In this document: positions 5,001 through 62,457 of the stretch, one piece after another
How positions within the stretch are numbered: the first letter of the stretch is position 1
How the letters are laid out: each line of letters starts with the position of its first letter
Origin: Trichoplax sp. H2
Taxonomy: Eukaryota
NCBI GenBank assembly: GCA_003344405.1
Contig: NOWV01000103.1
Location: 62,001 to 126,000, forward strand
Length of the DNA: 64,000 nt
Reading direction: 5' to 3'
Translations under genes and position numbers: made by a program
The notes under the pieces: model-generated
What the model was told of the DNA's origin: nothing
Databases searched by the model: none
Seen by the model: only the letters and a program-made list of their open reading frames with translations

Positions 5001-8000
5001 TTGCACTTTCGCGTCTTATGCTATTCAATTCATTCTTTAAATCCGATAATTTTTTCGCCGAAGTAATTCTTTCATCATGAAGTTGCTCATTTTCGGCTCT
5101 CAATTTATACGTTAGCTCTCTTAGAGATGTTATCTGTTCACTGGTACTTTTTATATTTTGCGCTTTCAAGACATTTGCAGAAGTCCTTTCTCTCTCAATC
5201 TCCTCAGCTAACCAAGAATTCTTCTGCGTTGTGAATTAAAGTGATTACATAAATAAAATCACAAAATATATCTCTATTGTTTTTCTTTTCCACTTATAGC
5301 TTAACTTTCAAGCTCAAGCATCAATTAATACCTGTTCAAGATAGACGATTTCATTTTGTGCTTCAGCTAGCTGAGTAGCTAGTAAATTAGCGTTATCTCG
5401 TTGTTGGACATACTTGAATAATAAACAGAACAAATAATTACAATTTGCCATACAGTAAACGGGGACTATACTATCATTAACAGTATTATTGTTAATGTAA
5501 CAATATTTAAAACCTCTTTGACCGGATGTATTAATAATAAAATTGTTCTAACCTGCTCTTTCACCATTGCTTCCCTGGAAGTAAAGGACCTTCTATCAAA
5601 ATCAAGACTTTTCTCCAGCATTGTACTAATTGCCAAACTATCTTCAATGTCGCGCATTGCTATTTTAAGGCGTTTCCTCAAAGAAGAATTTTCTTCTTCT
5701 ATTTCACGTAACCGCGATGTTCGATCATCGATTTCCCTTTCCAGTTTCCTGATACTCGATCTCAGTTTGGCTATTTGAACATCATGTTCCTCTTCTAAAA
5801 ATCTAATTCTCTTTTCCGATGCAGCAGACTTTACCTTTAACATATCAATCACAAGAATTCATTAGTTCCTGCAATATATATAAATAAACAAGAGGATATC
5901 TTACATTGACAATTTGTTCTCGATCTAAATCTTTATTACGTTCCGATCGAGAAGATGAATCTGATCGTGCCTGAACTAAATCATCATCCTTTTGTTTCAA
6001 TCGTCTATTTAGAATCTCGCATTCTTTCGATAACTAGCGAACAACAAATTGTATTTAATATTTTTTACGTAAAAGGATCCGTACTTTCAATCAAACTTCT
6101 CTATGTCATAATAAATTTTATTTATTAACCATCTACTTAGCTAAAATTAACCTCTTCTTTCTCCTCTTTCTCCCTTTGTGCTTGTCGGTGCTCTTTTTCT
6201 GTTAATTCTTTCTCAGATGCTAGTTTTCTCTTCAATCTATCGTTGTCGTCTGAAGATTCTTCATATCTCTCTGAATTAGTAACACATAAAGGTTAACTCT
6301 TGGTAAGCACTCAATTGTTATTTTCATATAACAACGATAAAGTAAACTTCATTTAAAAAAGTAGTATTACGTTTCCATTTTCTCAGTTCTTCTGTTAATT
6401 GTTTAACTTGATCTTCAAACAACTGCTTGACTTCGCTATTGGAGTCAATATTTTGTTCTGTGGAATTCTCAGCTGCTCCTTCACTAATCTGTAACTTCGC
6501 TTGCAATAATTTACTCTCGCTTTCAAGTGACGATATCGTCTCTTTATCCAATTTTATTTTCTCTTCGAGTTTGACTATATCTTCTCGCATTTTTTTACAC
6601 TCCTCCTCGAAATCTGATAGCTCCCGTTGTACCTTATTTAATTCAATCTGCAACTTCCCTTTTTCATTCGCTGTCTTTTCAGATAAATTCTTCCAATGAT
6701 CGACATCGCTTTGAAGAGCGTTAACTTCTGAGTTTAATTGATCCTTGGTACAAGAATTCACTTTGTCTTGCTCTTCATGTGTTTCTAATTCAGCCCGCAA
6801 TATCGTCAGCTGATTTACATAAAAAGAATTTAGTGGCTAAGGCAAAAATTCGAGTTCATAAAACGATTAAAAATAAATAAAATAAACCCGATACCTCAGC
6901 AAGATTATCAGCAGCATTCTTCTGCTCATTTTCAAATGATTTCTTAAGAATTCCCAAATCTCTTTGAAGACTTGCTTCATTATCCTTAAGATTATTCACT
7001 TCACGATTTCTTTCCTGTAGCTCCATTTTTAGTGACTCTATTTCTTTAGATAAATCTTTAGACATTTCTTTCTCTTGTTGTAAGGCTTTTTGCACAAGAT
7101 TTAACTCTTCATCAGAAGTAGACTTTTCTGATTCAGCATCTGTAATAAGAAATATAAATTTGTTCCAAGTCGTAAATCAGTAGTGCTATAAGCTGACTAA
7201 AAGCAAAATGTACAATACTTTAAATTGTAATCCAATATAATTATAGCTATACCGTTCTTATCTCTTTTCAGTGAATCAACTATGCCTTGCAACATTGCTG
7301 AATTATTTTGCTCTCTTTCCAAATCAACTCTCAGCGTAGATATATCAGCGTTTGATCTACCCAGATCTTCGTCTAACCTATCACGCTCACCGGTTATGAA
7401 ACGACAGCGATCGGTTGTTGCTTGTAAATTGTCTTGAAGTTCATCAATCTGAAAAGACAATCAATAATGATATATTTTAGTCCAACGTAACAAGTTGTGT
7501 AAAATTTTCACAATATTTTTTATACTGAATTAATGCTATTACAATTCTTTGTAGTTCTCTTATATCTTTTTCGTCTTCACTTGTTTTCTCTAGCGATCTA
7601 TCCAGCTTAGCTTTCAATTCGCTATTTTGCGTCTGTTCAACAATTATCTTGGATCTCAGTTCTTTTAGCTCTTTTCCAATAGATTCTGTTTCAGCTTCCA
7701 ATTTTTCGTCTTGGCTACTCAATTTTGTTTGTAAAGCTTCAATCATATCTTTACTTGCATTTAACTCATCTATGTAGCAAGATATTATAGAAATAAAACT
7801 TTATAATTACTCTTAAACTGTAAACTATTAGCTTACGTTCTAATCTCCTTAACCATATTAAAGCAAGATATAAGTGGAGCTTTTCATTACCCTTAACTAG
7901 TTCAGATTTTCCTTTATAGGCATCGATTTCTTTTTGCGCATCATCTAATTCCTTTACAAGAACTTCCAATTCCTTAATTTTAACATCTAATTGAGTTTTA

Positions 8001-11000: not shown

Positions 11001-14000
11001 ATTAAAAATGCATATGATATACTCAATGATAAACAGAATGAACTGACTGCACATACTGTGCTCTAAAGCAATGCAAACCAGCAGCGTATGATAAAATTAA
11101 CGCACAGTCGGATCGTAGGTCAATAACAAGTCACTATTGTTGTCTGTCTATTTCATATAGAATTGCATTTTAATTTCGATCGACTAGATGACGCTAATAA
11201 ATTTTCATTACGTTTGCGCAAACATCATGGATGGGTTACCTTGACAACAACATGATTGACAACTAGCAATCTAAAGATTAATGTCTACATTGTCTTTTAT
11301 GTATATCAGATATTCCTCTTCGAGATTTGTTTTATTAGTTTTATTATATACTGTATTGTTTGATCTACAAATTGGATGTTCTCGATCATTGTAACTATAA
11401 ATCAATATAAGTGGGACACCTGCAGTCAATAGATCTGTTTACTATAATGGTATTTACAGGACAAGATTTGATACAAAATATAATTTAAAATTGTTTAGCG
11501 GACGCTATTGTTTTTTACCCTTTTACCATTTGTAATTGCCCTAACTGACTTACGATTATAATGAAATATAAGCAACAAACTATACTGTACAACGTGTAGT
11601 CCAAAACATATCCAATAATAGGCGTATATATATATACGTGTAATTACATGTGTATATTTATGAGATCAACATTAAGAAATCTCAGTCAAGATCCAAATTT
11701 AATCTACCCATACCAGACTTGTCTTACTAATTGACAGTCCTTCAACATCATTAGCAGTCTGTATAGAACGATAAAGAATGACTAAGGACTCATTAAATGA
11801 ATATATAAAAACGCATATAAGTCAATAAGGGCTGCTATATGTTATGTAAATACTAATGATGATTTTTTTTAATGATTACCTTGCTTACTAGACATTGTGG
11901 AATTTATTACGTTATTCCTGTATTCTTAATATAATTGCTAATACAAACAATATCAACTAAATAAGCTGACACTACCCAAAAAAGCATTTTAAATAAACTC
12001 TTAATTTAAGATCTTATATATTTTCAACATTTGTAATTAAATTTATAGCATTACACTTATATATTCATTTAATGTAATATAAAAATTTAAAGAAGTGATA
12101 AAAAGTATCTCAATTATAGTCACAAGCAATATAAAACGTATGAAACATTGCTTCAAAATTAGGCGTCACGTTACAATCTGGCAATTCTTTAGTAATACTC
12201 AGATATCATTAATCATTTTCTCACCTCTTAAGAATCTGTACATATGTACATGGTAAATCCTCACACTAATAGTTATCTAGATTCTACTGTATATCTACTA
12301 TGAGGATGTTACTCACTGGAAACGTTGAGCAAAAATAAAAAAATTTAAAAACTCATGAGAGTATCACTAATTTGTCATCCTAAATAGCATAAAGAACGGC
12401 AAATATGTACATAAAATTTACCTCTCCCCGCTGCGAATCGCTATTCCTATTGAATGCTTGTAATTCCTCTTGATATTTAATACTTTCCAAATAGCTTGGC
12501 TGTTTTAATTGATTCTGCAATGAATTTATATCGTGATAGTTACGATCATTCCCTTTCTCATAATTTTTTCGAATATTTTCCAAACGGGATTTAAGTTGCG
12601 CAATTTCTCCTAACAAAACATTATCTGTTAAAACAATAACTTTATAAATCACTATGATAATCATGTGAAGATAACTCCGAGTCAGAACCTGTGACTAAAT
12701 TATCTGTCTTATCGAAGTCTTCCTTTTCATGATGTTGACCATTACATGATTCATCGCTATCGTTTAATCGATTTGGTATTGATTCCTACCGTTATATTGT
12801 ACCAGATATCAGCGCAATTTTTCAAATTTATAACAAGGAGTCAGTAATACAATACGAGTAATAATTACATGGCAATTAATTATTAATAGTAGGGTATGCG
12901 TATATTTTTAGGCCCTTTGATAAAACTTACAGTAGAGTAACAATCGGGCGTAGGGTCTCTATCCGACTTATCAATTGAGTTACAAGTTTGGTTAACTTCA
13001 GATGTTGTTTCTTCAATAACTAATGATGGTAGGTTCTGCATACAGTTACAGTCGTTACAAGGAGTGTCGGCATATCCATAATCTGACATAGCACCTATCG
13101 TCGATGGTTCCTGCTTATTCATTTTGTCTAGATCATTACCAGAAGCAATAATATCATGTGTTGTATAGTTTGAATTTTGATCGTTTTCAACCGAATTTTG
13201 ATTGCTAGAACTTATCGAAGTAGTTAAAGGATCATTATTCATTTCAGCTACACCGTTATCAACAATGGAGGAATTTGCACTTGGCTGACATTGGGTTGAT
13301 GATTCAATTCCGTTGTTGATAGCTATAGTTGATTGATGGCTACTTTGTTGAGGAACACATTTTACATCAGATGTATTTACAGGGTCGCATGGTGATGATC
13401 CTACGTTGGATGATTCAAGTTCATTTGCTCCAGATAAACTTAACAGTGGCTGTTGACCACCTTGTAGGGAATCTCGTCGACCTTTTAATATTTTACTTAA
13501 ACGGCGTTTAGAAATTTCGTAAAATGTATTATCATCTTTTTTAACATCTTCATTTGTTTTCTTTTTTCTTCTTTTATGATTAACAGATAATAGACCTTCG
13601 GCTACGGTTAGACTGCGCCGTCTACGACGAGCAGCCAAATCTGGATGTAATTCATTTTTACTCGGCTTTGGAGTGAAATTATGTAAATCAGGTGGAAAAT
13701 CTTCACAATGCTCATCTGAGACGATAATAGTAACTCCATTTAATATTGGAAATTTCTTTTCTGCTTGATCATTATTTTTATTACTCTGGTCAGTTAATAA
13801 ACTTTCATGATGATCTTGTCGATAATCTGATAATGAAGAAGAGTCCTTCTCACTTTCACTACTATTGCTGGTAGATTTGCACTTGGATTTGACTGTATTA
13901 TTTTTTTCTCGATGTTTAGTAATATAGGATGATAAATCCGTTAACGAAATGGAGTTTCTCTGGCTTAATCGTAAAGAAGAAGTACTTCCATTTGTAACTT

Positions 14001-14214
14001 CACTATCATTATTATTACGATTATATCTTTCTTTGATCTTCATTAACCTTGCCTGAAATTCAGTATCTGGCATTAACGAGCGAGGATCGAAGCCTTGTAG
14101 CTTATAGCAAATTGCTTCGCGTATAACTTCTTTATCCTGCCGAGGATCGTCAGTCAGATAATATTTAGTGGGACAATCAATTAATGAACTGGTAGTTGGA
14201 TCATCACCTCCCAT
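2035..14214 (-). CDS. Large multi-exon coiled-coil protein with a disordered Ser/Asn-rich N-terminus; family not identified
   Basis: ATG at 14214 (MGGDDP) opens a ~1.28 kb exon. Phase-compatible splices were checked for CYST|ESIP..VT|DNVL..RGE|ISHLKELL across the ~3 kb intron. Many short E/K/L/Q-rich heptad exons follow (ORFs 4918-8089). The last exon reads LRTRSAQ...NKPAVST* with the stop at 2035-2037. Not every internal junction was verified. Confidence 0.75.
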
Positions 14215-15807
14215 ATCTAATCAACATAAAGACATCATAATTATTCATTCAATTAGCATTTTTGAAGTCATGATGAAAAAAAAAAAAAATTATATAATTA
14301 TAATGAGCCCAATAGCAGCCCACTTATCCATTGATACATTCTATTACATCGAAAAGTACGAAAATCAAGCTCGGGCGTCTAATGGAATTAATGATGGTAG
14401 AATTAAACTAATTATAACATTGTGTTATTAACAGTATCTTCAATCTGATCAGAATAAAGTTAATACAAGCAAGATGCTTACTTGAAAAACAATAGGCTGT
14501 CAAAGAATTATTGATTATAAATACATGTATGCCAAATCGAAATGAATGCCAACTTATTGTATTACTTGTTATTATCAAACGAAGAATGTCATTTCGATCA
14601 TCAATCTTTTTTTAGGTTTCTATAAAAAGAAAATTCGACAATGGTAGGCAAAGTTTAACAGTGTTTTAACATTTGAGATTGTTCATCAAAAGGATTTAGA
14701 ATATTTCTCTACACCATAGGAACGGGCTAGACTCTCTTGATAGTATACACATAGTACGCCGTAGTGATGATAGGCGCCAGGTTGGTGAAAAAAATAAAAA
14801 GGTTAATTCAAGGGATCACTATAAATCCGATGTTACCATTGCACAAACATGTCGATAATGTAAAGGCACCAATAGATGCATACCATAAGCTTTGTATTAT
14901 GGAATAATAGCAAAACCGATCAAAAATCAACCTAAGAAGCTGTTCCAAAATAAATACTTCAAGTCTACCGACATAACTTAAGCATTGTAGGTCCCATGTG
15001 CAATCCGTCAATTTAACTGTCTCATCAGTGACTCATAAATGACTCATAGCGTTATAACTCATAAGCGAGTAGTCAAAAGAATATATATGTTACTGTCCCC
15101 GATTTGGATCAACATAATCAATATAAAAGCAACAAATTTAAAAATGTGTAAATTGACACATGTTTTAATTAGATAGGTTAATGAACTACATGAATAATTA
15201 AACTTGACCAGTATACAGTACTGCTCAGTTGGGTTTTTAAGACGTTTCCACGCCGCACATAGACAACTAGTTGTCATAGCTTCAATGAGATTCAATTGCT
15301 ATATGCGTACGTACAATATAAGTATAAACGATAAACGATAGCGGAATAATTCATGAATAATTATATACGATCAAGGTTATTACTCCAACATGCTATGTGC
15401 GTATTTAAAAAGGAAACGTTGACCTATTTCACTACGTTCTGAGTGGAATTACTTGGATCTGATCGATCGTAGACCCTAACAAACCTACTCGTCTATGAAT
15501 GTGATATAGAATTGATACAGCCTAGTTCAATTAATAAGACAATCGATGATTTTCTTGATCAGCTACTTGAAATTTCAATGTCATGTTTGTAAGTTAACCA
15601 TGTCCGTTATAAAATACGCTATAAATACGAGTACATTTATGCTGGTGTGTTCATATACAGCATGAGAAGGATATACAGTAGTAGGCAAGAGTAGTATTGA
15701 ACAAACTCGACCTATGATAGCACGCATCCAGTTGAAACTGTATCACTTATGATCATAAGTTGATGACAACCACTTCTCATCTCTATCATGACTACACAAT
15801 TCTTACC

Positions 15808-18320: not shown

Positions 18321-18894
18321 CTACTACTATTCTGGTCAGCTACGAATTGAGCGAAACACATATCTAGCGCAAAACTCGTAAATACAGCGTGTTGCAATTG
18401 CATTTCAAATTTCAAAACAGCGAGACGCTCGCTTCATAACCCTGCATTTAATATATCTCGTTGATATTCAAATACCAATTATTACCGCACCGTTGAACAT
18501 TAAATAGCTCTTTCACTAATTATACCATATTTATATTGCGCAACATTGGCACTACCTACTACTAAATCCCAAGTTAAAAGGACCTCCAGTATCCACTTAG
18601 CGCGTTAATGAATGAAGATAGTATATTCTCACACGGATAAATATAGATTATATTTGAATCACTTATACTTAAAGAAATAAATACAATCAATCACTATTTA
18701 CGACCATTTTGGAATATATTTTATTTATTTGCAAGCATTACAAGATTCATTTTGAAACTCATACATTTTGCATATAGTGTACAGTATTGTACCTAATTCT
18801 CATATAAGGATTACTGACAGCAGTGAAATATCTATCATGTGTCATCTATTTCAAAGTAAGTAAAAAATTAATTACGTAGCCTCAGTACTTTAGG

Positions 18895-23716
<4,822 letters not shown>

Positions 23717-23777
23717 GGTGACAGATTTTCAGCAGATCTACTTTCGGACAAAATCCTCGCCTTCGTTGGAATGGTTG

Positions 23778-23863
23778 CCTGATGAAAGAGGAAGAACGAG
23801 ATCGTCGCAGCCAAATTTGTACAGAAATAGCAGCCAATCATGGGATGGCGCTCTTTGACGTCA
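23778..23863 (-). promoter_or_regulatory. EEF2 core promoter: pyrimidine tract (TCT/5'TOP-like), CCAAT box and CRE palindrome
   Basis: Minus strand CTCGTTCTTCCTCTTTC lies ~70-85 nt upstream of the ATG. CAGCCAATCA is at 23831-23840 and TGACGTCA at 23856-23863. eEF2 mRNAs are known TOP mRNAs. Confidence 0.6.
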
Positions 23864-23978
23864 TATCTCATTTTCAATTATATCCAACCCCTTGTGGTAT
23901 CACACTAAGCGCAGTGTGCATGCCAAAAGGCATTCTTTAAAAGCAGTTCACAGTCCTTACAGAAAGTCACGCAGGCTG

Positions 23979-24238
23979 TGTACTGTACAGTACAGTACAG
24001 TACAGTACAGTACATTGTATGCCCAGTACAGTATGTACTGTACTTTACTACAGTATACAGTACTGTACTGTACAGTACATGCTCCATATTTTACACGCTT
24101 TTACGGAATGAACGAATTACGCAGGCGCATTCCGCGAAAAGCTGAAGTGCGCATCCGCGTTCCGTTCCATTCCGTAGTTTACTCCGTACCTAGTACAGTA
24201 CTTTGACTTGACTGTACACTATCTACCACTGTACTGTA
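23979..24238. repeat. (TACAG)n / CTGTA low-complexity array upstream of EEF2
   Basis: Tandem tacagtacagtacagtacagtacag at ~23986-24013 plus many further copies in both orientations. Confidence 0.85.
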
Positions 24239-27200
24239 GAATGATTGAATTGTTGAAAAGCTGTTTAGCCTGAAACCCATAGCGTTGCTATAAATGATAT
24301 CTTTCAATTTTTAAGAAATGTACTTTAAATTGGACTCAAATTGCACGCAGATACATCGGTAAAACCTTTAGCAATTGGCTCTTGATATTTTGATCACTTT
24401 TCATTGCAGTATTGAATAATTTTGTTTCTTTGAAATTTCGAATACAAACTATCAGTCACTGCTGCATGTACGGTCGGTCGAACCATTTTACACTATACAG
24501 TACACTAGTCAGTTAAAATGGCCAGCAAAATAGCAGCCATCCCAATTCTACAGGATAATGTAGTGCTATACTGTATGTAATGTACCTATTGGGTAATGAG
24601 CTAGCCGAGGAATAAAGACGTTAGAGTACATAATAAAGAGTGAACTAATTATAAGTATTAGAGAAATAGTCTTACTTTATTTGAAGGAGTACTGGCCATC
24701 ATAAGAACAGTGCAAGCTGGTTAATTACAGATAGATAACCTTAGCTTCAAGAGGTACCCCGATGTACAGTATATTTACAATATTTATTAATGGGTTTTTT
24801 ATTGACGATTGTACCTCGCGGCACGTAACCCTTACAGAGAAGAAGAATAGCTAAATATCTGTCTTCCCTTACACGCGATTCTTGCCTTAAATAATGGCCT
24901 GCTTGTCGCTACCGATCTACTTAGGCCTAACATAGGCCGTATACCTTTAGTCTTAACTTATTATACTGACAACTCAACCAGTACTGTGATAGGTAGAAAC
25001 AGCGCCTACAATAATATACAGTTATCTCACATCGCAATGCCGTATTACGTATATCGCTAGTAATAGAAGATCTATAACTATATCTAAACTACCGTCAGTA
25101 CCGTATCCTACATTCGTTTATTTAGTTATTTATTTATTTACAGAAAGAAAGGGCTTGAGCTACAGTATAATGGCAGTCACTGACTAATTCAAAAGGCATA
25201 CAGTAGGTACAAAGCAATACTTGACACTGCTCTTAACCTTAATACCCGTTGATCACTAGGAGCAAAAAAAGTAAAAATCACTTTAATGATAGCAATCTGG
25301 TACTAAATTCATGCGCTAATGACCAGTGTATCATAATGTTAATAATACTGTGCACATTTATAATCGGGAGGTTTAAAATTTTTCCCGATCGAAACAATTA
25401 AACCGTCAGCAATACGGTAGCTATGAATGCTAGCATTGATAATTGTTGTGTGTAGCGCAAATTATGTAATCGAAGACAGATACAGTCAGTAGATAGGACA
25501 AGATCCTTGAAAAAAATAAAATATAACAAAATATTGTTTATGAGCACTCAAGAAGGAGATGCTAATTCAAAGCTCAATTACGTCCATACTATACCAGTCC
25601 TGTGCTAATATATCACGCAAAGTAACTACGTCACTATTACTATTAAAACAAATTAAAATGTTAGTTAAACAAATTTATAGGTTTATTATAATTATTAGCT
25701 AATGCTAAAAAAAGATAAAAACTAAAATAGTATTAAAAGCGAAAGATTTAACATCATAGATGTACAGAAAGTATATAATATCATAGCCAATATGTCATAA
25801 ATATACGAGTATGTTACGGCCATCCTTAAGATCGATTTTGTCCTAATGAGACTAAACAACCAAAAATTTATGAAGCGCACAGTGGTATTAAATAGCCTCA
25901 TATTGTATTTGTATGATTACTAACATATAGTATAATAACCATCGTATGAGTGGTAAAAGTATTTCTGTTCAGTTATGTTAGCAACAATAACAACTTGGAC
26001 ATGATCTAGTTAATACCGTATATTTTTTATTACTTTAGCATTAATTAGAAATTGAACTCAAATTTAAAATTACCAGATAAACGTACTGTATATGCTGGTA
26101 GAAAACGAACTAAGTGTCCCATCGTCAGCTTCTCTTATCCTAGAATATAACATCGTCAAATCAAAAATTTAAAAAATTTCTGCAAAATCCCTGAAATGTA
26201 ACACTTTTAATTTTAACAATTACAATACTGCCTTCGCTTATTTACATATACGAGCACGTGCATATCCTCTCTCTCTCTTTCTCCTCACTGTCTCTATCGT
26301 CATATGGCTACTCACCTATATTGCACTAATGCCAATCTTTACCTTCTATTATTAATAAATTCCGTCTGTTTCAATCCTACGCCTAAAAAATACAGTCACT
26401 GTGACATATTAAAATCATTTCAATAAGTGAAATACCCGCTTGATTATTTACTGATTTTAAGCCAAGATAAAGATTAGTCCTTTTTCTCGCTATCAAGTAA
26501 TAACTTCGAGTACAGTAACTCATTCACAATCTATACTGATAACGTAAATAATTGAAATTTTATGCACAACCCTTCAATTTATTGTACAGATGGATGTAAT
26601 GTACCGTATTGCGGGTGCAACGATTATGGTGGAGTCAATAAAGAGAAAGAGAGCAGATAAACTCTATTGATAGGAGTCGCTTTTATACGCATATACTGTA
26701 TACAAAGAAGCAAATGCAGTCAATCAATTCAACCTTGGCATATTTCCTTGCAAGTTCAGCGAATTTCGTTTCGAAATTTATGCAATTCCCATGTAGTTGT
26801 TAACAGTGTTATATCTCTGGCTAGTACTGTAGAACCCTTGCGAATAGTAATACAGTGACGGACACAAGCTTAAGAGATTAATTAATTAAGAACTGCTTTA
26901 TTACGTTAGCTTAGCCTATTTATTGACTCTCATATATGCATCGCCTTCGCATTTCTTACGCTACTCATCGCTATTATCATATCACCTTATGTCTGCGTAT
27001 GAAAGATACGCTAATACGAGCTACAATGTCGTACTATACATAGCACGAAGTATAGCTTAGGGCCCCTAGCGTTGTGTACCACTATTTTTCAATTTTTTAT
27101 TTATTGAAAAACTACGGCTTTCATATATGCATCGTTTACCATTCTAACCATATGTAGGATTGCACAACTGCAGATAAATTACTACACTACGCATATTAAT

Positions 27201-27466
27201 AACCATACTTCTAACAAAGAATCGAATTACGAAATGTAAATGAGCACGAGTAATCAAATCCATACTTATACAATAGAAACTAGGCACAAGCATAGATTGA
27301 AGAATAACATATGTATCACACCATAAATTATCAATGACCATAAATGTACTACAACATGTAAAAATTGCAAGTTAGTAAAATGCCATATCGAACTGATATC
27401 GAGCAATCGCAGGATCACTTAAAGTAAATAAAATTAATGAATTGCTAGTAACTTAAGTACTTTAAG

Positions 27467-30400
27467 TTATAGTTTGTCCAAATACATATCCAAAGCGGGT
27501 ACACCTTCAGTTAATCCCTTACTCTTTCTTGTTGAAGCTACAATTACGCCAGATTTGGATGTTGCATCCAATGGATCATCAGGCATTATCTGCCAATGAT
27601 CGAATACGCACTGTAGAAAAGCCTTGCCTTGAGTTGCTGATGAAAGATCGGCCTTAAAACCTGAATAAAACATCACGCTACTATTTAGTAAAATATTTTA
27701 AATAAACTTGCCAATTTTATACACTACGCAGTTACTTTATCTTCATCATATCATTGTTATCATCTCACCAAATGATTCATTGACAGGTAGGTAAGCCTTG
27801 ACTACAACCATCGGAGTATTAGAAATTATATTTTCTTCCAATATTTTACCACGACGCTTATTTAAAGTTAAACTGACTCCACCAGTAGCATCTTGCGGAC
27901 ACTACATGATAGTACAAATAAACGATTCATTACGAGGCATCCCAATTAGCATATACGTTTCAGTAAGATTGAAATTATACCTGAATCTCTATCAAGTAGA
28001 CAGGCTCCATAATACGAGGTTTAGCAGTTAATACACAAGCATGTAAACAACGTCGAGTCGTTGGAATAATCTCACCACCAACACGGTGAGCAGCATCAGC
28101 ATGCAATGTAACATCATTGATGTTAAAACGTACAGCACGAACATTTTCTCCACACAAAACGCCCTTCGAGAAATTTTGTGATTATCATTGATATTAGGAA
28201 TTGATTATTGGTCATATTACAACAGCAGAACTACAAAGTATGCGTATACCGTTTTCGTAGCCAATTGGAAACCAGCAACAACACTATCTTTAATTTCATT
28301 TAAGTATTGTACACCTTTTGACGTATCAATAAGAAAATTGGCTCCTTTAGCTTCAGGACCAAAACACCAAATCTTACGTGCTTCTCCGGCATCGTATTTG
28401 TACGTATCGGCTAGATATCTAAAGATACATAATCTATGTCAACATTTTTCAACCATAGTTATATAGCAGAGAGTCATATATCATAATAACTACCTAGCCC
28501 TAACTTTGAAGTCTTGTTCTGGAGTAACTTTACGCTATAAAAATAGAATAAGTAATACATACATCACTCAAGATAAATGTAGAGAATTGAATTTACGTCT
28601 CGTATCCGCGTCTATACGATTACATATTAAAAAAATTAGCGAAAACAACCACCATAGATTAATATAACTGCTAAATTACATTCTCAACATCCTCAGCCAA
28701 TCCTTCAGGGAAAGGTTGCGCTGTCATAAAGAGACGATTGTGTTTGTTGGGAGATTTAGATAAACACGTCTGACTTGATTTGCTGCTAACTGTTTCCTTA
28801 TACGATACTGTTATAGCAGATTTCTATAAAGGCATAAATTACACCAGCTTTGGCAATGCAGTCGTAATCAATCATAAAAATTAAATGGTAATTTTATACC
28901 TTGATCGGAATGCCAGCATAGTCCTTCTCCAGCTCTTTCAAGCTAGTATCTAAATGCGATTCTCCACTACCAGTGACAACATGAGCGCCGTTTTCTTCAA
29001 TAATGCACTAAAAAAGTAACCAGAATAAAATCACGATCATAGTATCATGATACAGAATATATTATTTTAACCAGAGTAACTTATAATGGTGCCCTACAGG
29101 ATAAAAATAGAAACTACCTGAATCGTAGGATCGGATTTTGCAAGAAGTTTAAGTCCTTCTACAAGTTTTGGCAAATTAGAGGGGTCCTTTGGTTCGACAC
29201 CGATCCGTACAACAGCCGACTTAGAAAACTTTATCATCTACGATCATAATCATATTTAAATTTATTTATGTGATATTCTTTTATCCAATTATGCAATATT
29301 AATCTAAATCAGTTAACCTTCAGATTATGAGCTTTATCGTACGTAGTGATCGTTCCAGTTCCCATTAAAAACTGATCAACTCCAACAAGACCAGCAATGT
29401 TACCACATGGTACATTCTTAATTGATGCAATACAACGACCCATCACCAAAACAGTTCTAAATATATCGAAAACGTTGACTAGTCAATATTACTTGAGTAA
29501 AATAAATTCTCATGATTTCTACATGATTATATTCAATATTACTTTTGAATTTCTATTTGATGTAAATCATCTTTTTTTCCAGGTACAAAATTAGGACCCA
29601 TGATTAGAACCTTTTGTCCAGTACCGACTGTGCCTGAAAAGACTCGACCAAAGGCATAGAACTGTTTTCCATCGCTTTTAGGTACCAACTTTGAAATATA
29701 CATACATAAATGTCCCTGTAAATGAACGTAATCCAATTTTATTAGTTGGTAAACATACCGGTATGCCATCAAGTTACTATTGTATCTAACCTTTGGATTG
29801 CAATTTTTTATATCAAGAGCAATAGGATCATCATGAGGACCTGTATATAATATTTCCATGCGGTATTTTTGTGCAGTAACAGGTGAAGGCACATGAATAC
29901 TTGCCATCTTTAACAAAGTGTCCCCAGCAGGCAGCCATTTCTTCATGATTATATCCAATAATGCTTTTCCTTCCTTTTTCTAGTTTTATTAAAAAACGTA
30001 AAAATATATTGTACCCCGAAAACTATACTTTACGATGCGACACTATATGTAGGCCTACTTTTTCTTCAGATGACAACTTAATTTGAAGCTTTTTCAGCAA
30101 CTTTTCATATACATTTTTTTGAGATTTCATTACATTCTTGAAAATCTAAAACCCCAATTTGAGAAGATCTGATATATAAAATGCAGTAACAGTTACAATT
30201 AACTTATATAATCATATACCATTTGGATAGGATCAAGTGCAAATTGGTTAAATCCTCTAACATAACCACTGCCGCCGGTTTTATTCCATTTACGCTCCTT
30301 TGGACTATAATATTGATCACCCCATAATCGAACCATAAGTTTCTGAGGCTCAATCTTAAATTTAGCAGCGTATATTTCAGCAAATTCTTTCAAGCTGAAA

Positions 30401-32308
30401 GCCCAACCTTGTGAGCTAGAGCCAAAGGCAATAGTGCCTTTTGTTGCATCAACCTTTATAAGATACAAAAATAAATTCTACAGATGATCAAGTCAACAAA
30501 TAACCAAGAAAATTACCACTAACCTGAATATTTCCCATCGGTCCATCATCATCATTATAAGTAGCGATAATTACATTTGTGCTCTCAACAATACGGCAAA
30601 ACGTCTGATACAAATTTTCATTATCTAACTCTAATTTCAATAAAGCTTCGTCCATGTTATCCATAAACAAGAGAGGCTTTACACGCTGACTGATAGCTTG
30701 ACGTAAAACAGTTTCAGTTTGTACACTTACACCTGAATTAAAATAGGTAGCCTTGAGTCATTAATCGATTTTTCCACGACATTTCAACAAAATTAATCCT
30801 CATTATCATAATTAAAATAATTTCAACTTTTCAAATCCGCTAAAGAAGAGTATTTTAATTTAAATTCATCATCGCATTATAATAACGTATTAAAAATCAA
30901 TAAACTAACCCTTAATGCAGTCGATAACTACCAAAGCACTATCTGTAGCACGAAGCGCTGCTTCAATTCCCGATGAATAGTCAAGATTTGTAGGCATATC
31001 AATCAAATTGAAAAGAAAATTATTTCCATCATTTTCTTGACCGGAAAGATATGCCATATCTGGGTCAGATAATGTATAATGAAGTGATTTAGCCCTATTT
31101 ATCGGATAACAAAAATTTAGAATCTAAATAGTTTGCACGATTTTAGAAGTATCTGTCTAAGCTTAGTGTAATAAAGTAGGATTACAACAGAACCATACTA
31201 ATAACTCGATCGGATAGTTAAAATTCACAAATTGAATCTAGGTCTATCCAAATTATCCGGTACCACACGGTGTAAAAACTGTATATTGTAATAAACGAAT
31301 TTTATTAAATCTCTCCATTAAGATTATCCGTCGTTTTTTAAGGATAATACAATACTACTTACGAATTGTGCTGAATAATACGCGCATATAGGAATGCATC
31401 ATTGCAGTCTAAGCCACGTATGTTAAAACAGGATAGTAAAATTTTTACAATTAATTAAATAAACTTTAAAGTAATTTCAGACAACGGTAGGTGTGGCACT
31501 GCAGTACGCAGTAAAATTCGTTCTGTTACTGTCGAATCACACTGAACTATACTTATCGTACATAAATGTTAATCAATAAAACTAGAACAGGCAATATTAT
31601 AGAATATTTTTTAAGAGCACAATCATATTCAGAGGAAAATTCGCAGAATTTAGGATATATGTAGTACTGTATAAATGGTGCACTAGCAGAATAGTAACAA
31701 AATTCTGACGGATTGCAAACCCTACTTACATCGCCTTTTTAGGGCTTTCTTGGTTATCTTTAGTATCAACACCAACACTAGCCTTGCTCATAAGCAAATC
31801 TACTACAGACGACTTTCCCTCTTCGGTCTTTGCTATAACCGACATATTTCGAATGTTGTGCTTTTTGTCCATCACCGAACGCACCTAATATGATTTAAAA
31901 ATCTAGTTAACTTTACATTGAACTACGAAAAAAAAATTTCAATTCATTCAATCACGGTCAGAATTAATAGCAAGAAATACAGTTTTATCTACCTGATCGA
32001 GTGTATAGTTCCCCTATGATGTTTTTAAACCATGAATAAAAAGAATGAAGATTAAATTGTTAGATACAGATAAAAAACAGGTAGTAATTAATTTTACCTT
32101 AATCGGAAATTTTTTTATCCTATTAAAATTTGACTACAGTACATCGGACTACGCCCAGATACTCATATATCGAAAAAGTCTACGGACATGGATATACTAA
32201 TTAACGTTTTAAAAAAGTCTTAAAAATTCCAATTTTACTAAAATAATTTATATTTGATTAACAATTTTAATCTTCTACACCATAATGGAAAGGTTGGTGA
32301 CTAACCAT
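27467..32308 (-). CDS. Divergent tandem eEF2 paralog: intact 18-exon ORF with degenerate GTPase motifs (candidate pseudo-GTPase)
   Basis: Same intron positions and phases as EEF2. Reads [66 protein letters not shown]...[23 protein letters not shown]...[11 protein letters not shown]...GSSSQGW...[12 protein letters not shown]...[15 protein letters not shown]...LDMYLDKL*. I translated all exons and found no stop or frameshift. Confidence 0.92.
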
Positions 32309-34247
32309 GGCAATCTATTTTATAAAGTATGAAATCTTAATCGAAATTCTCGTCTTCGTTGGAATAGCTGCTTAACAAATAAAGAAGACGTCCTTTAGCA
32401 TCCGTTAATGATTTGGTTCAAGCTTAGAAGGCTATAGTTTACGACGCCACAGGTGCTGAGGGTACCATGAATGGTAACAATAATTATATATATAATAGAT
32501 TAGTTAAGTAGACATACAGTAATTCGCCTCAGGCCAGGTCTCAGGTTGGGTGATTATTTTGTAAAAGTCTTCGTTCTTAACAGTGTATAGTCAATTGTAT
32601 CAGAAAGAAAGAGGCCTTGTAAACAGTCTACGATAGATTCTGTGCAATTCACAGCAAGAAGTGCTTGGTCTCTTTCCAAATTTTTTCTTTAGACTTGTTT
32701 ATTTAATAAGCAAGCCTCACAGGCCCAGTCAATATATAATTGATATTAAGCGAGCTTTATTTATCAAGAATGAATTTTTCAGCATCTTGTCTACTACTAC
32801 AATATCTAGTAGTAGACTATTACAGCACAGCAGTGTGATAGTCAATTGCTTTGAAGAACAATGACTGAATGATTGTAATTAGTAATTTACTATTATGTCC
32901 GAAAAGTAGAGAACTATCTTCGAAGTCCACTGCATTAAGGGGTTGGATAGGCAATGGTATCTATTTTCCGTAAAGACTCTTTAAGAAAAGAACCCCGCCC
33001 CAAAAACTAACTACAGTACCTTTCATATTGTAGTTCATGCGCAAATGTCGCTATTCAGTAAACATTAATAACTACTTGGCGACAAAACTGTAATGGCACT
33101 ACTGAAAGGATTTAAAATATTAATTGACGCTGAGAATAAATACTAAAAGTAAGGGTGTTTTAATATCAATTTATATCATTGGTTTGCTTACATATATATT
33201 ACATATATAGTAATAATCGATAATTAAGTTTAATAATATTATTATAATAAACATTCTAGGTTGATAGACTTTAGCAGTTGTTGAAAATACAACTGTACCC
33301 TACGAGGGATCAACCGCATCACTAAAAAGCAGCGCACTTAAAATATCCTTCATGCTTATATTACCAAAAAGCAAAAATGATTATCTGCTCATATAGCGTT
33401 TAATCACGAAAAAATATGTATAGTTAAATTTGATGATTACATTTTATGAACAACAGCAAGATTGTAAGTTGTACCACAAAATATCACAAAATAAAATATT
33501 AATGAATTCAAAATCGAACGCCGCAAGATTCGAATGCATGCACAACCATATATGTAATCTTATCATCACATAGATGGTAGTATTCTAGCTAGTTGTACAA
33601 GATTTTTAGCTAGATAGTAAGCATTGATTTCGCTATCGATTAAAATATACGAAAATCACAAATTAATGAAGCCTATAGTAAGTACTCCGTGTACAAAAAA
33701 ATTCTTATATATATGGTTAATAAGATATAGTAAATATAATATCAGTGGTAAGAGCATTTCTGTTAAATTAGCAATAATAATAACTTTGGGTGTTAAAGAA
33801 ACAAGACAATATTGATAACTCATAAAAACTTGGCATAACATACGCCGCAATGAGGATTCCGACATTATTTACATCCTTGCAGACGTTGCGCATTACATTA
33901 ATAATTACGCAAGTTTATCTTATTTTAATCCTGTACAGCAGTTTAAAATAATTTTAAGAGACATTTCTTAACGAAATTTAAGGGATTACGTTTACTCGCA
34001 ATTAGTGCGTTAAAGACGCAAAATCACCATTTCAAGCATTCTTTCAAAACAATTTATAGTCAGCTCGACTTAAACCTGCTTCGTAAATAACAAAAATACC
34101 TTTGGTAATACTTCTGAAGTATTTGCAGAACTTGGTTAGAGTACAATGCCTCGCATCTGTATAAGTATCAATCGGTATAATTAAAGCTAAATATTATTTT
34201 TTATTTAGATATAATAAATTAATAATTCATTCAACTACTTACAGAGA

Positions 34248-37200
34248 TTATAGGCGACGATTATTATACCCTGAATTCGGCCGTGACATTGGATTGTAAC
34301 CTTCATAATAACTAGAAAGGATAGCAAATCATTAATTTACTGCTTCGCGTAAATTTATTTATTGCTGTCGTTATAATAAAGAATAAAACAATATTTTATG
34401 CAATTACAAAAAATTATGAATGAATAAAGCATTAACCATAACGATTATAGAAATATCATTAAAATAAGGCTTACGGTTGTCCTTGATATCTCGACGGGCC
34501 ACCATTACCGTTCATTATTGGCTTTTCTCGTCCTTGAGGAACCCTCTTTTGTAAAGACCTACAGCATAGGAGAAATAGAATTTCTTAAGTACGTACAATA
34601 AGCATTACCTATGGCAATACAGTGGCAATTTTCTATTTAATATCAATCTTCCCAGTAATTACAAATTTTACGGCCACGCTCTTTAATCATATATCAATGC
34701 ATAGAAGTCTATATAGTATCGAAATTTGCCTCAGCAAATGATTAAATGCTATCCACTAGATATTTTTTTAGGTATTCTAATTGAACTTACACTGCCCTCG
34801 GGGGAGGAACTGGCTGACTACCAGGTGTACTAGGCGTTGTATTGCCCCTCATCGGAGATGCCGGTGGTCTGGTGTACCTTGAGAGTTTATAGATATTTTT
34901 ATTTGTCAGCGAAGCAAACGATAGCCATTTTCAAATGTGTCACCCAATATTTAAGAGTTAGGAATAAAGCAGTTATTAACAAAAGGAGATCTAGTAATGA
35001 CATACCTATGCTCTTGTCTCATATTATAATTTCCGTCGTTATCAGACCGCCTGTTAACATGCCTCGATCGATCAGGAACATATCGATCATGCGATCTTAC
35101 AGTACCATTTCCATGTTCCGAGGGATAACGGTTGCTATGACCATTAACAGCAGACCAATCTTGCGTTTGCGGATATCGCCTCGGAGGAGATGGTGGAAAT
35201 CCACGAGATCGCGATTCCGGCATGCCTCGAGATTTTTCATCATACGAATCATTAATACCTCCATCTACTCTAGAGGAATCTTTTTCTTCTGTTCGTCGCC
35301 CGTCATTGTTACCTTGTTGATCATTTTCAGGGCCTTTATCGATCCAGATTTCATTTTCTTTATCGATATGTACTGGAGTTTTATTCTTACTACGATCGCG
35401 CCCATAACTACCGCGTCTATCACGGCCACGATTACCACGCCGGCGTGAACTACGAGAACCTCTAGAATGACCTGAAGCCACACTTCGTGTATCTCCATCA
35501 CCTTCTCGACCGGATAATAAGGATGCTCTATCTGTAGCAATCCTATGAGGTCTACAAGTTGTAAATTAATATTAATCCTTTAATTTACAAAAAAAAGTAA
35601 GCGGCGATACATCGCCTATCGTAATGAAATATCAGTTATTGTAGTGCTTACTCCTGACTATCTTCGCTAGGCTGATGTTGCATTTCATTTTGTTTACGTT
35701 TAACTTCATTCCACTGAGGTCTTGAATCAATCATTTTTGGAACTTTTAGTTCACTTGATTGCGATCTTAATATAGTAGTAGATAATTGGATGATAAATAT
35801 ACTAGCTCATGGAAGGATAGAGAGTTACGTCTCAGTATGTAAACTAGACTGCTAAAATATAAAAATATTTTTACCGTAAACATTAAATAAGACGAATTGT
35901 ATAATTTACCGCTTTCTAATCCGACGATGTCGATTAGTTGCTTCTGTATCGCTGCTATATCTACCATTCGACCTACGGCTATATATTGGTTAGATTTTAT
36001 CTGTTTTTTTAATACTTGCTATTTAATATACTGCATATGTACCAAGCTCATTTTACATCGCACTACTTCACTATAAAATATTGTTATGCTGTAAAATATA
36101 CCTTGAACGGCGACGCCTTCTCATGACTTCATCATCAGACATCCGGCTATGATAACTACGATTATTTGGCAGCGAATGTGATATTTTAATTGACAGAATA
36201 CCTTACTCTCATTTCTAAGATTAGTCAAACTGTTCAAGGAAGTACCGAAATTATATTTATTAGTTATTACAGTATATCTTACCTCCTTCTTGTGTCCGAT
36301 TCGCTACCGCTATCAACATAAATGTGCCTTCGCCTCCTAGTACGTGGTGATCGACGACTACTACTACCTGAAGCCTGAGAAGCACTGGAAGGCCGCCTGC
36401 ATCACAAAGTAGAAAGTATACTTTAAAAGTTAAATAGCGAAGTGATATCGGCCCTAACAATATACATCATTCTAAATATATGAAACAACTACTCTGTATT
36501 TTAATTTAATCTTATGCACAAACTCTAACTATTTTCGCAACAATTTTAGATATACTGTGCACCAGTTTAGGTAAGTATAAGCTAGGGGTATTTGTATAAT
36601 AAGCAGCAATCTCTACGTCACATACCGTCCACGAGATCCTTGAATACGTGAATTATCCACAGAAGGTGCAATAGAACTAGCTCTTGAATGTCTACCAAAC
36701 AATGAGTCGTCTACAAAAAAGATACTATTTTTATAGATAATCTGATGATTATAAAACAATACCGTTTAAAAAATAGCGTTAAAAATTCAACCTGTGCTAG
36801 CTCGCCTAGGAAATCTTTTACTCGGGAGTCTACATTAAATATTCAATTTTAATATCACAACAGAAACTTATCTAACATTCTATAACATATTTTTATAATA
36901 TTTTTATACAGTCTTCGTACCTAACTACTTTAGAAAATTCATATTGCTGTTCAGCAATTTTTCGATAATTTTCTTTTTCTGTAGAAGTACTGTAAAGGGA
37001 ATAATTTAATTAGTTTAAAACTATCGGCTGCGGCTTAAATATTAATGTAATAAGTAATGTATCAAACCTATGTTTCTGATTTGGAGTACAATTTGATAAC
37101 CAGAAATATGCACCAGCTGGTGTTTTTGCGGCTTTTTGCGCTCTGTAATAGTTCAAATTTCATGTGTCATCAAAATTTTAATCGGCGTCCTTCGCACGTA

Positions 37201-43990: not shown

Positions 43991-44991
43991 TTATGATCTA
44001 TATATAACTGAGTATCATCGGTCTGGTCGTCTTCAGCACTGGTTACCATACTGGCTGTCATGATTTTCAATACATGATCCATCGCCTCAAGGCCTGCCCT
44101 CGCTCCGCCTCTTCGGTTACATTCTGTACCAGTCTTAACCAGTGCCAGACCATCGTCTTCATCCATACTGCACAGTCGACAGACTGACCAGCAGACGGAT
44201 GCAATCTGCAACACACGCGCACTCGGGCCTCTGTCGCCGACAAACTACCAACGACAGTATGGCCTGACAGACAAGCAGCGACATCGACTACAGCAATCAA
44301 TTTGACGACGAAAAGGACAAGCAAATCACGGCTAAACTCTCATTCAACATTACTGTAGGAAGTAAAAGCTTTGATCAACTCATAAACGTACACTCGTTAT
44401 AATGATGATCAACAGCCCTGCCAATATTCCACCACTTCCTATTGATCGACTATAAAAATCGCACAATTGCTTCCACTTGGTGAAATACTACTATACAGTA
44501 CAGTAGATTTGCAGCCAGTCAAAACATGAAAATAAATAGGACACACACTTGTAGGTAATGTCGAGGAAGAAATGGATGGCCCGGCCGTTTATTTTTCCAA
44601 AGTAGAATGAACGCTGAAAATGTTGAAAAATCTTCTGTCAATGACGTGTTGGCTACAAGTATCAACGGTGTATAATAAGAGCGCTAAATCAATTCATCGC
44701 AATGAATAAGTAATTAGCAGTCCAACAGCTCGTTCTAATTTATGACTCATAACCGCCATTCTATGGCACTATCAGGCCTTTTTCAATTCATTATTCCGAT
44801 ACATAGGATTGAATGAATTCCACTACAGGATCTGAATTAAAAGTAAATAATGAATACTGATAATGATAAACCACACCATGGATTCAAGACTAAACCCCAA
44901 TTCTATTATATAGCCAAGATAAAGTACCGTCAGAAAGGCAGTACAATAGACAGAATGCGATTTGACGGATAATACATCGACAATACCATGC

Positions 44992-45263
44992 AATAATAAT
45001 GATATAAAGTAGTAACGACGATGTATTGGTGCACCATTTTTGGACACTTATTAAATGCTGTACAACCTACTTTATCACAGTCTTAATCAAACAACTTTAT
45101 TGACTATTGAAGACAATTTTATGATAATATAATAATAATGATATAAAGTAGTAACGACGATGTATTGGTGCACCATTTTTGGACACTTATTAAATGCTGT
45201 ACATCCTACTTTATCACAGTCTTAATCAAGCAAATTCTATTGACTATTTAAAACAATTTTATG
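44992..45263. repeat. Two-copy direct tandem duplication, period ~139 bp, high identity
   Basis: aataataatgatataaagtagtaacgacgatgtattggtgcacc...caattttatg occurs at 44992-45123 and 45131-45263 with only a few substitutions, all in the 3' half. Confidence 0.95.
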
Positions 45264-46140
45264 TCATGCAATAAAATGGAGAAGTGTATCATTTTAATCA
45301 ATAGCATAATACAGGTGCTACACTATTCCAGTATATTATTTCAACCACTACCTTTGATGTATCGGCTTATAAACTGAAAGTATAGACGACATCTAGGGAT
45401 CTACTAACCGTTTAGATTATGAATTTAGCTAGCTATCGTATATTCTACTGCTGATACAATAAACTACCTGATAAATAATTTACTAACAGTCAGTTAAAAG
45501 TGTTACCATTGGCTTCAACGATATACGCGTATGCGTACAGTCGTTAACAACCATTTAACGTACTAACCCTTTTAAACAATAATTTTTTACAAGAAGTTCA
45601 AACTAAGGCTTGTCGACATTAATCTCAATTAGGCATATCCAGATTTACTGTCAATTACTTATCACTTGAAGGACTATGCCATGATAGAGGCTGATTCAGT
45701 ACAGTTAACACGATTATCTCGGACGAGTATTATTGTAAGGTATGGCCGTCCCTTTCACTTTTACTAGTCAATGGCCACCTACAACTGCATTGTCAATCTA
45801 TAATATCACCAGCGACAGACACCATATCTACCGTAATTTGCTATTAGAAATTGTATAGAGTTTCATGATGTCTCCTAGTATTACTCGTGCAATATCATTT
45901 CATAGTTACTAAGAATGACTACAGTATAATGAAACTACTTAATGAATTCTGTATCTCTATCGAAAGAAATATTCGTAAAAACTATCTCCGTCTTGTTTAA
46001 AAAATTCTTGAATAGCTACACGAAAAAGTTAAATAGTTTATATACATATCACGCTTAATTTACAGAAGGTACCGTACTTATGTTAAATCGACAATTTAAT
46101 TCAATTGGAATTTGATTCCCATATTATGTTACTTACATTG

Positions 46141-62290: not shown

Positions 62291-62457
62291 ACTATAGGTG
62301 AAAATCAAACGTTGATCTGGACCGTAAATCAATCATGCCCTGGCCCACGAAATGTTTGCTAATAGCTTGTTGGCGCCAAAGTTAACTTTAAAAATAAAGT
62401 TAAATTATTAATTAATTGCAGTTGTACCCTGGTAAAAAATCAACTACTTGCCTACTT

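Follow-up and report, generated by a model that had tools for sequence, protein, structure and literature searches.

The 64,000-nucleotide stretch of Trichoplax sp. H2 DNA analyzed here (from contig NOWV01000103.1; hereafter the window) is AT-rich eukaryotic sequence that carries 2 genes for the translation elongation factor eEF2, arranged in tandem on the minus strand (Table 1). One is canonical and the other is a degenerate copy, and we built models of both coding sequences (CDS) from coordinates. The copy opens with an ATG at 32308–32306 and its stop codon ends at 27467. GT..AG boundaries are found at 17 of 17 introns in each gene, i.e. all 34 splice dinucleotides of the copy are intact, and neither frame contains an internal stop. 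The genes have all 17 intron positions and phases in common and agree in length at 16 of 18 exons. The exceptions are exon 3, with 155 nucleotides (nt) in the copy vs 194 nt in the canonical gene (−39), and exon 4, with 185 vs 182 nt (+3). An earlier note on this DNA had described the copy by its coordinates, 18 exons, splice sites, open frame, and these 2 indels, and all of these are exact.

The copy is already present in GenBank, but annotated merely as an ordinary eEF2: our model is letter for letter the protein "Elongation factor 2 [Trichoplax sp. H2]" (P0001), which is also the sole match of an exon 4 query. The canonical model is 99.9% identical to the Trichoplax adhaerens protein TRIADDRAFT_37398 (P0032). 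The latter lacks the first 12 residues of our 840-residue model and is therefore, by coincidence, as long as the copy (828 residues), and the two are easily confused in listings. Upstream of the first exons, which consist of the ATG only, a block is conserved between the genes (23761–23800 and 32340–32400, minus strand) and is preceded by a pyrimidine-rich run; the 5′ leader or promoter region seems to have been duplicated along with the gene.

Table 1. Positions of the 2 eEF2 genes and of features of the degenerate copy (window coordinates; UTR, untranslated region).
Feature	Position	Strand	Description
Canonical eEF2 gene	18895..23716	-	18 exons, CDS 2523 nt, 840 residues
Degenerate eEF2 copy, CDS span	27467..32308	-	18 exons, CDS 2487 nt, 828 residues
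Copy exons 1–6	32308-32306, 32013-31993, 31884-31730, 31094-30910, 30732-30524, 30453-30220	-	
Copy exons 7–12	30145-30059, 29979-29791, 29715-29543, 29456-29318, 29237-29118, 29007-28900	-	
Copy exons 13–18	28823-28680, 28534-28494, 28418-28250, 28163-27981, 27901-27769, 27660-27467	-	
3′ UTR of copy	27136..27466	-	RNA contigs extend to 27146 (X4), 27128 (X5), and 27136 (X7)
DNA similarity, copy vs canonical locus	27421..32077 vs 18853..23443	-	confined to the gene; outside flanks unaligned
G1/P-loop of copy, residues 26–34	31807..31833	-	AKTEEGKSS vs canonical AHVDHGKST
Switch I/G2 remnant, residues 45–62	31088..31776	-	across intron 3; 13 residues shorter than canonical
G3/start of switch II of copy, residues 92–96	30986..31000	-	DMPTN vs DSPGH; Gly to Thr, catalytic His to Asn
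G4 of copy, residues 146–149	30650..30661	-	DNMD vs NKMD; NK to DN, Asp kept
G5 of copy, residues 202–208	30403..30423	-	GSSSQGW vs GSGLHGW
Domain IV tip loop SKSPNKHNR, residues 563–571	28734..28760	-	identical to canonical
Diphthamide loop, residues 680–693	28062..28103	-	14 residues; His685, equivalent of the diphthamide site, kept

By similarity and architecture, the copy belongs to the eEF2 subfamily of translational GTPases. Compared with PDB sequences (phmmer), it scores 1133 bits against eEF2, 526 against Snu114, and 311 against EFL1. The precomputed Pfam domains of P0001 (PF00009, PF03144, PF14492, PF03764, and PF00679, i.e. GTP_EFTU, D2, EFG_III, EFG_IV, and EFG_C) give the 5-domain eEF2 layout, with a G domain that contains the insert and with domains II, III, IV, and V. 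The copy resembles canonical eEF2, be it the neighbor or solved structures (e.g. 4v6w_Az and 1n0u_A), in this architecture, in its end-to-end alignment, in its introns, and in its SKSPNKHNR loop and diphthamide His, while differing in 5 degraded G motifs, a shortened switch I, and a main kinase-site threonine that is not conserved. It is 67% identical to the neighboring eEF2 (558 of 827 aligned residues) and 63–68% identical to full-length animal eEF2s, whereas animal eEF2s of the same kind are 78–85% identical to the canonical Trichoplax protein (9 compared).

Snu114 and EFL1/Ria1 have the same superfamily and domain order as the copy but are far less similar to it. Snu114 is ruled out, as the copy has 828 residues without the acidic N-terminal extension, and in the alignment with human Snu114 its residue 4 stands opposite residue 114. 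EFL1/Ria1, with ~1100 residues and a large insertion that the copy lacks, is ruled out as well, its match covering only a partial stretch. The earlier note had rejected both identities, and the bit scores and the 17 introns held in common with the neighbor bear it out. According to Atkinson (2015, PMC4342817), Snu114 and Ria1/EFL1 are eEF2 duplicates older than the last eukaryotic ancestor.

The best explanation for the copy is a tandem eEF2 duplicate that arose in the placozoan lineage. Its protein branch is about 4 times longer than that of the canonical gene (0.50 vs 0.13; FastTree), and the tree places it in a clade of 34 tips with a support of 0.087, not beside the canonical Trichoplax gene, a position that is probably distorted by the long branch. 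With other phyla as the reference, the canonical Trichoplax protein has a derived residue at 16 positions; the copy has the derived state at 3 of these, the ancestral state at 7, and neither at 6, which is a weak signal.

Few known proteins are as conserved as eEF2. Its G3 His is the catalytic residue of translational GTPases, and NKxD confers guanine specificity. We aligned the motifs in 119 sequences, i.e. the copy, a protein of the sponge Sycon ciliatum (P0102, see below), and 117 canonical eEF2s (116 hits of 815–870 residues and the canonical neighbor). Among the 118 eEF2s other than the copy, the canonical G1, G2, G3, and G5 strings are present in 117 and NKMD in 118; G1, G3, and G4 are kept in 117 of the 117 canonical proteins. 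By comparison, G1, G2, G3, G4, and G5 are all changed in the copy, as the earlier note had claimed. Specifically, the P-loop keeps its G-K-S core with substitutions of His, Val, Asp, and His, and the RCITIKST block of switch I is replaced or deleted.

A pseudo-GTPase is a GTPase fold whose catalytic or nucleotide-binding motifs have been lost. The G domain of the copy aligns with eEF2 along its whole length at the sequence level, and with its motifs lost the copy is a candidate pseudo-GTPase that would have no GTPase activity. Some nucleotide binding may persist, because the G-K-S core and the Asp of G4 remain. These same remnants, together with the intact architecture and domain IV tip, would also fit a copy that retains GTPase and translocase activity, albeit of an unusual kind, i.e. 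a specialized eEF2 isoform. We consider this highly improbable. The lost G-motif residues are required for hydrolysis and guanine specificity in translational GTPases, and they include the catalytic His (now Asn), the Gly of DxxG (now Thr), and the NK of NKxD (now DN). Switch I is short by 13 residues and has no RCITIKST block, and deviations at G1, G3, or G4 are found in 0 of the 117 canonical eEF2s.

The degraded segment also bears on regulation. The eEF2 kinase gene eEF2K is present in T. adhaerens, and phosphorylation at Thr56/58 reduces the affinity of eEF2 for the ribosome (PMC2827801). In the copy, the segment that matches the eEF2-kinase threonines is deleted or replaced, and the protein is probably outside eEF2-kinase control.

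Loss of conserved residues is strongly uneven along the copy. We define as invariant those residues identical in at least 99% of canonical eEF2s, which gives 449 columns, and the copy changes 109 of these, about a quarter. In the pocket motifs (G1, switch I, G3/switch II, G4, and G5), 36 of 61 invariants are changed, mostly by radical substitutions or by deletions, vs 73 of 388 outside the pocket (odds ratio 6.2; Fisher P = 3e-10), in agreement with the previously claimed concentration of losses on invariant residues. Outside the pocket, the remainder of the G domain (20 of 81) is second in losses to domain III, and the best-kept parts are domain IV (8 of 84), the G-domain insert (5 of 46), domain II (12 of 74), and domain V (7 of 45). 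The tip loop SKSPNKHNR shows no change at all, and the 11-residue diphthamide motif (HxDxxHRGGGQ) keeps both His and the Arg, with differences at 3 of 11 positions. From this distribution we infer that constraint has been lifted from the engine and from whatever is coupled to it, and that it still acts on the ribosome-facing scaffold and the A-site probe.

One position of the diphthamide loop is variable. Codon 687 (window 28081, minus strand) encodes Val in the window (HRVGGE) and reads Gly, as in canonical eEF2, in the sequencing runs X4 and X8; the loop of the copy therefore differs between strains or labels.

Our preferred interpretation, to which we assign a probability of about 0.45, is that the copy occupies the ribosomal factor site independently of GTP. 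With P-loop, switch I, catalytic His, NKxD, and G5 all degraded, the nucleotide pocket has been dismantled. What has been kept is the ribosome-facing side, i.e. domains II and V, the insert of the G domain, and both tip loops of domain IV with the diphthamide His. Such a protein is predicted to dock in the factor-binding site, where domain IV would reach into the A site, and would have no capacity for the GTP-driven translocation cycle. It might then act as a plug or protector of idle ribosomes or subunits, or as a competitor of eEF2. Ribosome binding and role are both read from the pattern of retained and lost residues. A ribosome-occupying role that needs no hydrolysis is plausible for the eEF2 fold, because eEF2-GDP is reported on 60S subunits and on >95% of 80S ribosomes in hibernation (PMC13541302).

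A new function off the translating ribosome is an alternative that we regard as unlikely. The copy might instead bind partners of eEF2 (the diphthamide machinery, eEF2 kinase, or folding chaperones) or factors that target the diphthamide loop, and so serve as a regulator or decoy, or it might have joined another ribonucleoprotein, like Snu114. The copy retains the diphthamide His and much the greater part of the loop around it, the family offers precedents for such shifts in Snu114 and Ria1/EFL1 (PMC6143161 and PMC4342817), and the fast evolution of the copy (branch 0.50 vs 0.13) fits a new function. However, the best-kept parts are those that the ribosome uses, i.e. an identical SKSPNKHNR loop and a domain IV with 8 of 84 invariants changed; with 828 residues aligned end to end with eEF2, the copy has no added domain or extension as Snu114 and EFL1 do; and a stoichiometric decoy is weakened by a contig depth (a poor measure of expression) of only ~1–3% of that of the canonical gene.

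The sequence of the copy also bears on whether it has been retained. Pairwise NG86 estimates for the copy and the canonical gene give a synonymous divergence (dS) of 0.54, a nonsynonymous divergence (dN) of 0.205, and a ratio of the two (omega) of 0.38, with 64 of 241 four-fold sites differing. In neutral simulations on the parental CDS, 350–450 substitutions lead to 16–19 expected stops, with a probability of none of ~1e-7 to 5e-9, vs 0 observed, and we infer that a neutral phase longer than about the last sixth of the divergence would bring the probability of no stop down to 0.05 or less. Sixteen of the 17 introns have changed length, while indels in exons are limited to −39 and +3 nt, both multiples of 3. 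Invariant non-pocket columns are changed less often than variable columns (72 of 389 vs 175 of 391; P = 2e-15), whereas full neutrality predicts equal rates. Plain neutral decay of the copy is thus rejected, because stops are absent, introns but not exons were resized, and change is strongly uneven. These results support the view of the earlier note that a retained protein fits better than neutral decay, with constraint like that of eEF2 except in the nucleotide pocket; that the protein is noncatalytic is suggested by its motifs. Recent gene conversion as the cause of the open frame is rejected too, as dS in 60-codon windows ranges from 0.24 to 0.98 and is nowhere near zero. Introns aligned under permissive gap costs are 72% identical, vs 66% when shuffled, and were not used for dating.

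Sequence runs provide evidence on both variation and expression. We mapped 4 runs (X4, X5, X7, and X8) on 18800–32400. X4 is a declared RNA library, and X5 and X7 are labeled RNA only by guess but show no intron or spacer cover; X8 behaves like DNA (introns and spacer at depth 1–27) and was used for variants only. Across the 4 runs, the CDS of the copy varies at 15 sites, of which 8 are nonsynonymous and 7 synonymous and none is a stop or an indel, and the canonical CDS has 4 variants, all synonymous (8:7 vs 0:4, P = 0.10). These variants only hint at present-day constraint on the copy. The earlier note had named disabling mutations in sister species or haplotypes, together with a dN/dS near 1, as evidence that would speak against its reading; neither the window nor any contig of the 4 runs carries a stop or frameshift.

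The copy is transcribed and spliced. In total, 20 run rows contain part of the 5-kb locus, and many hold 0.32–0.35 of its words, which is approximately the share of spliced exons. A contig of 2748 nt in X4 matches 27146–27658, 30220–30450, and 30521–30730. Between the first 2 of these pieces it carries 1488 letters, i.e. the summed length of exons 7–17 (1486) plus 2, which shows that introns 6–17 have been removed. A further 306 upstream letters fit exon 4 and part of exon 3. From exon 3 through the 3′ UTR, this contig therefore represents fully spliced mRNA. X7 yields a contig of 2776 nt, and X5 yields contigs of 1980 and 846 nt, all spliced likewise; in X5, 10 overhanging letters at 31886 agree with exon 2 at 9 positions, vs 4 for the intron. 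As such, the spliced transcript that had been proposed as a check is found, with contigs over exons 3–18, in 3 RNA-type runs from 3 studies. Intron 8 of the copy (29716–29790, minus strand; 75 nt) is in frame and free of stops, so that a frame at 29979–29542 spans exons 8 and 9; its retention would insert 25 residues with the frame unbroken, and the letter counts of the X4 contig show it to be spliced out.

Several observations weigh against a functional occupant of the ribosome. Average constraint on the copy is weak: since the duplication the canonical protein has stayed almost the same, because of which nearly all dN falls on the copy, and with all dN so assigned and dS split evenly the omega of the copy lineage is ~0.76 (95% bootstrap interval 0.60–0.95). 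With just 40% of dS assigned to the copy, the interval extends to 1; omega would be lower if synonymous change is slower in the highly expressed parent. The synonymous excess among the variants of the copy reaches a binomial P of only 0.03–0.16, depending on the model. Damage also extends beyond the pocket, since the 73 changed invariants there include 21 of 58 in domain III. On the side of expression, exon 1 is not seen in the RNA contigs, which have no cover over 31966–32400 (exons 1–2), a hole that in itself proves nothing. Word depth, which is a poor measure of expression, is 46 (X4), 92 (X7), and 27–32 (X5) for the contigs of the copy, compared with contig or joint depths of 1073–7464 (X4; 11858 in one variant row), 3354–5481 (X7), and 1483–1668 (X5) for the canonical gene, which places the copy at ~1–3% of canonical depth. 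Three protein searches reveal no orthologue above 70% identity outside Trichoplax (best 68%, 70%, and 63%), where the 70% is the best among 120 matches listed. A metagenome scan for an orthologue reaches at best 66% among the 80 loci kept. In these searches short fragments may rank lower than the matches listed, and placozoans other than Trichoplax may be absent from the collections. Finally, an AlphaFold2 model of the copy from a 32-row alignment is poor (mean predicted local distance difference test score, pLDDT, 63; predicted template modeling score, pTM, 0.47) and supports no claim.

Many of these points would fit a redundant duplicate heading for loss, which is still transcribed from its duplicated promoter, evolves nearly neutrally, and owes its open frame to residual or past selection. 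Under less favorable splits of dS, omega rises to 0.95–1.16; the 8 nonsynonymous to 7 synonymous variants are barely distinguishable from neutrality; contig depth is low; the copy is found in Trichoplax only; and 109 of 449 universally invariant residues are changed. We nonetheless find this explanation doubtful, as it has to accommodate 0 stops where 16–19 are expected, exon indels in multiples of 3 only next to 16 of 17 resized introns, 34 of 34 intact splice dinucleotides, and the excess of change in variable columns, and as the simulations would leave it a neutral phase of no more than about the last sixth of the divergence.

Copies of eEF2 with a degraded GTPase center are not confined to Trichoplax. 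The sponge protein P0102 (EukProt EP00117_Sycon_ciliatum_P000853, 829 residues) resembles the copy in a degraded P-loop (AQADDGKST), in DSPDN at G3 with the catalytic His changed to Asn, and in a gap of 11 residues in the same stretch of switch I; 25 invariants are changed in both proteins. Unlike the copy, P0102 keeps NKMD, and its changes are 22 of 60 invariants in the pocket and 14 of 80 in the rest of the G domain, with just 4 beyond the G domain (18 of 389 non-pocket invariants overall). It is an independent case of an eEF2 with a putatively dead center, because it is 79–81% identical to canonical eEF2s vs 63% to the Trichoplax copy, and a cleaner one, with degeneration largely confined to the G domain.

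A scan of 1.84 billion cluster representatives lists 150 eEF2-family proteins (P0241–P0390), and in 100 of them alignment succeeds at G1, G3, G4, and the diphthamide loop alike. Among these 100, the canonical state is found in 67 and the catalytic His is missing from 24, 13 of the 24 keeping the diphthamide His-Arg. Organism names were obtained for 5 of 10 proteins looked up: Sycon ciliatum, Dactylellina haptotyla, Tieghemostelium lacteum, Paramecium tetraurelia, and P. octaurelia. Like the Trichoplax copy, the copies of Paramecium, T. lacteum, and D. haptotyla have ~800–860 residues and no catalytic His; unlike it, these divergent protist and fungal proteins show 31–47% identity, separate origins, and varying motif states, and our literature searches turned up no functional work on any of them. 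Naegleria has "several versions" of eEF2 that are highly divergent, according to Atkinson (2015, PMC4342817). The comparable copies in sponge, ciliate, dictyostelid, and fungal species suggest a recurrent and so far undescribed evolutionary outcome, not a one-off. The same searches yielded no account of the Trichoplax copy or of an eEF2 pseudo-GTPase class.

One described counterpart is a mirror image. Archaeal aEF-2p, as presented by Narrowe et al. (2018, PMC6143161), is, like the copy, a lineage-restricted EF-2 duplicate, judged unable to translocate; yet it keeps G1–G5 and has lost the domain IV loops, whereas the copy has lost G1–G5 and keeps the domain IV loops. An aEF-2p-type paralogue is excluded for the copy by this opposite pattern.

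A wider proposal, which we put forward as speculative and rather unlikely, is that eEF2 has repeatedly spawned GTP-independent ribosome occupants. These would have dropped the engine and eEF2-kinase control and kept the A-site probe, and would park or protect ribosomes and 60S subunits that are idle, or slow elongation in certain cells or states, with the Sycon, Naegleria, Paramecium, dictyostelid, and fungal copies as convergent members of an unrecognized class. If true, the Trichoplax gene would be the first animal example that adjoins its parent gene and for which transcripts are in hand. An expressed copy that lacks exactly these G residues and keeps the decoding-center probe would be a natural separation-of-function mutant, and offers a direct route to asking what eEF2 does on the ribosome without GTP hydrolysis. 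The question is current, as eEF2-GDP is reported to be the dominant factor on hibernating 80S ribosomes and 60S subunits (PMC13541302).

Other parts of the window show several minor features. The spacer after the canonical gene contains a self-complementary, low-complexity stretch of GTAC-like units (23973–24084; an inverted self-match), and a similar stretch occurs in intron 3 of the canonical gene. A tandem repeat with a 139-nt unit lies at 44987–45278 (2.1 copies, 90% matches). On the plus strand, an open frame of 528 residues (62416–63999) runs off the end of the window; it contains a P-loop-like GxxGxGKG stretch and is probably part of a large helicase-type gene. On the minus strand, a Ser/Asn-rich open frame of 445 residues (12883–14220) and an Arg/Ser/Asp-rich one of 204 residues (34951–35565) are probably exons of neighboring genes.

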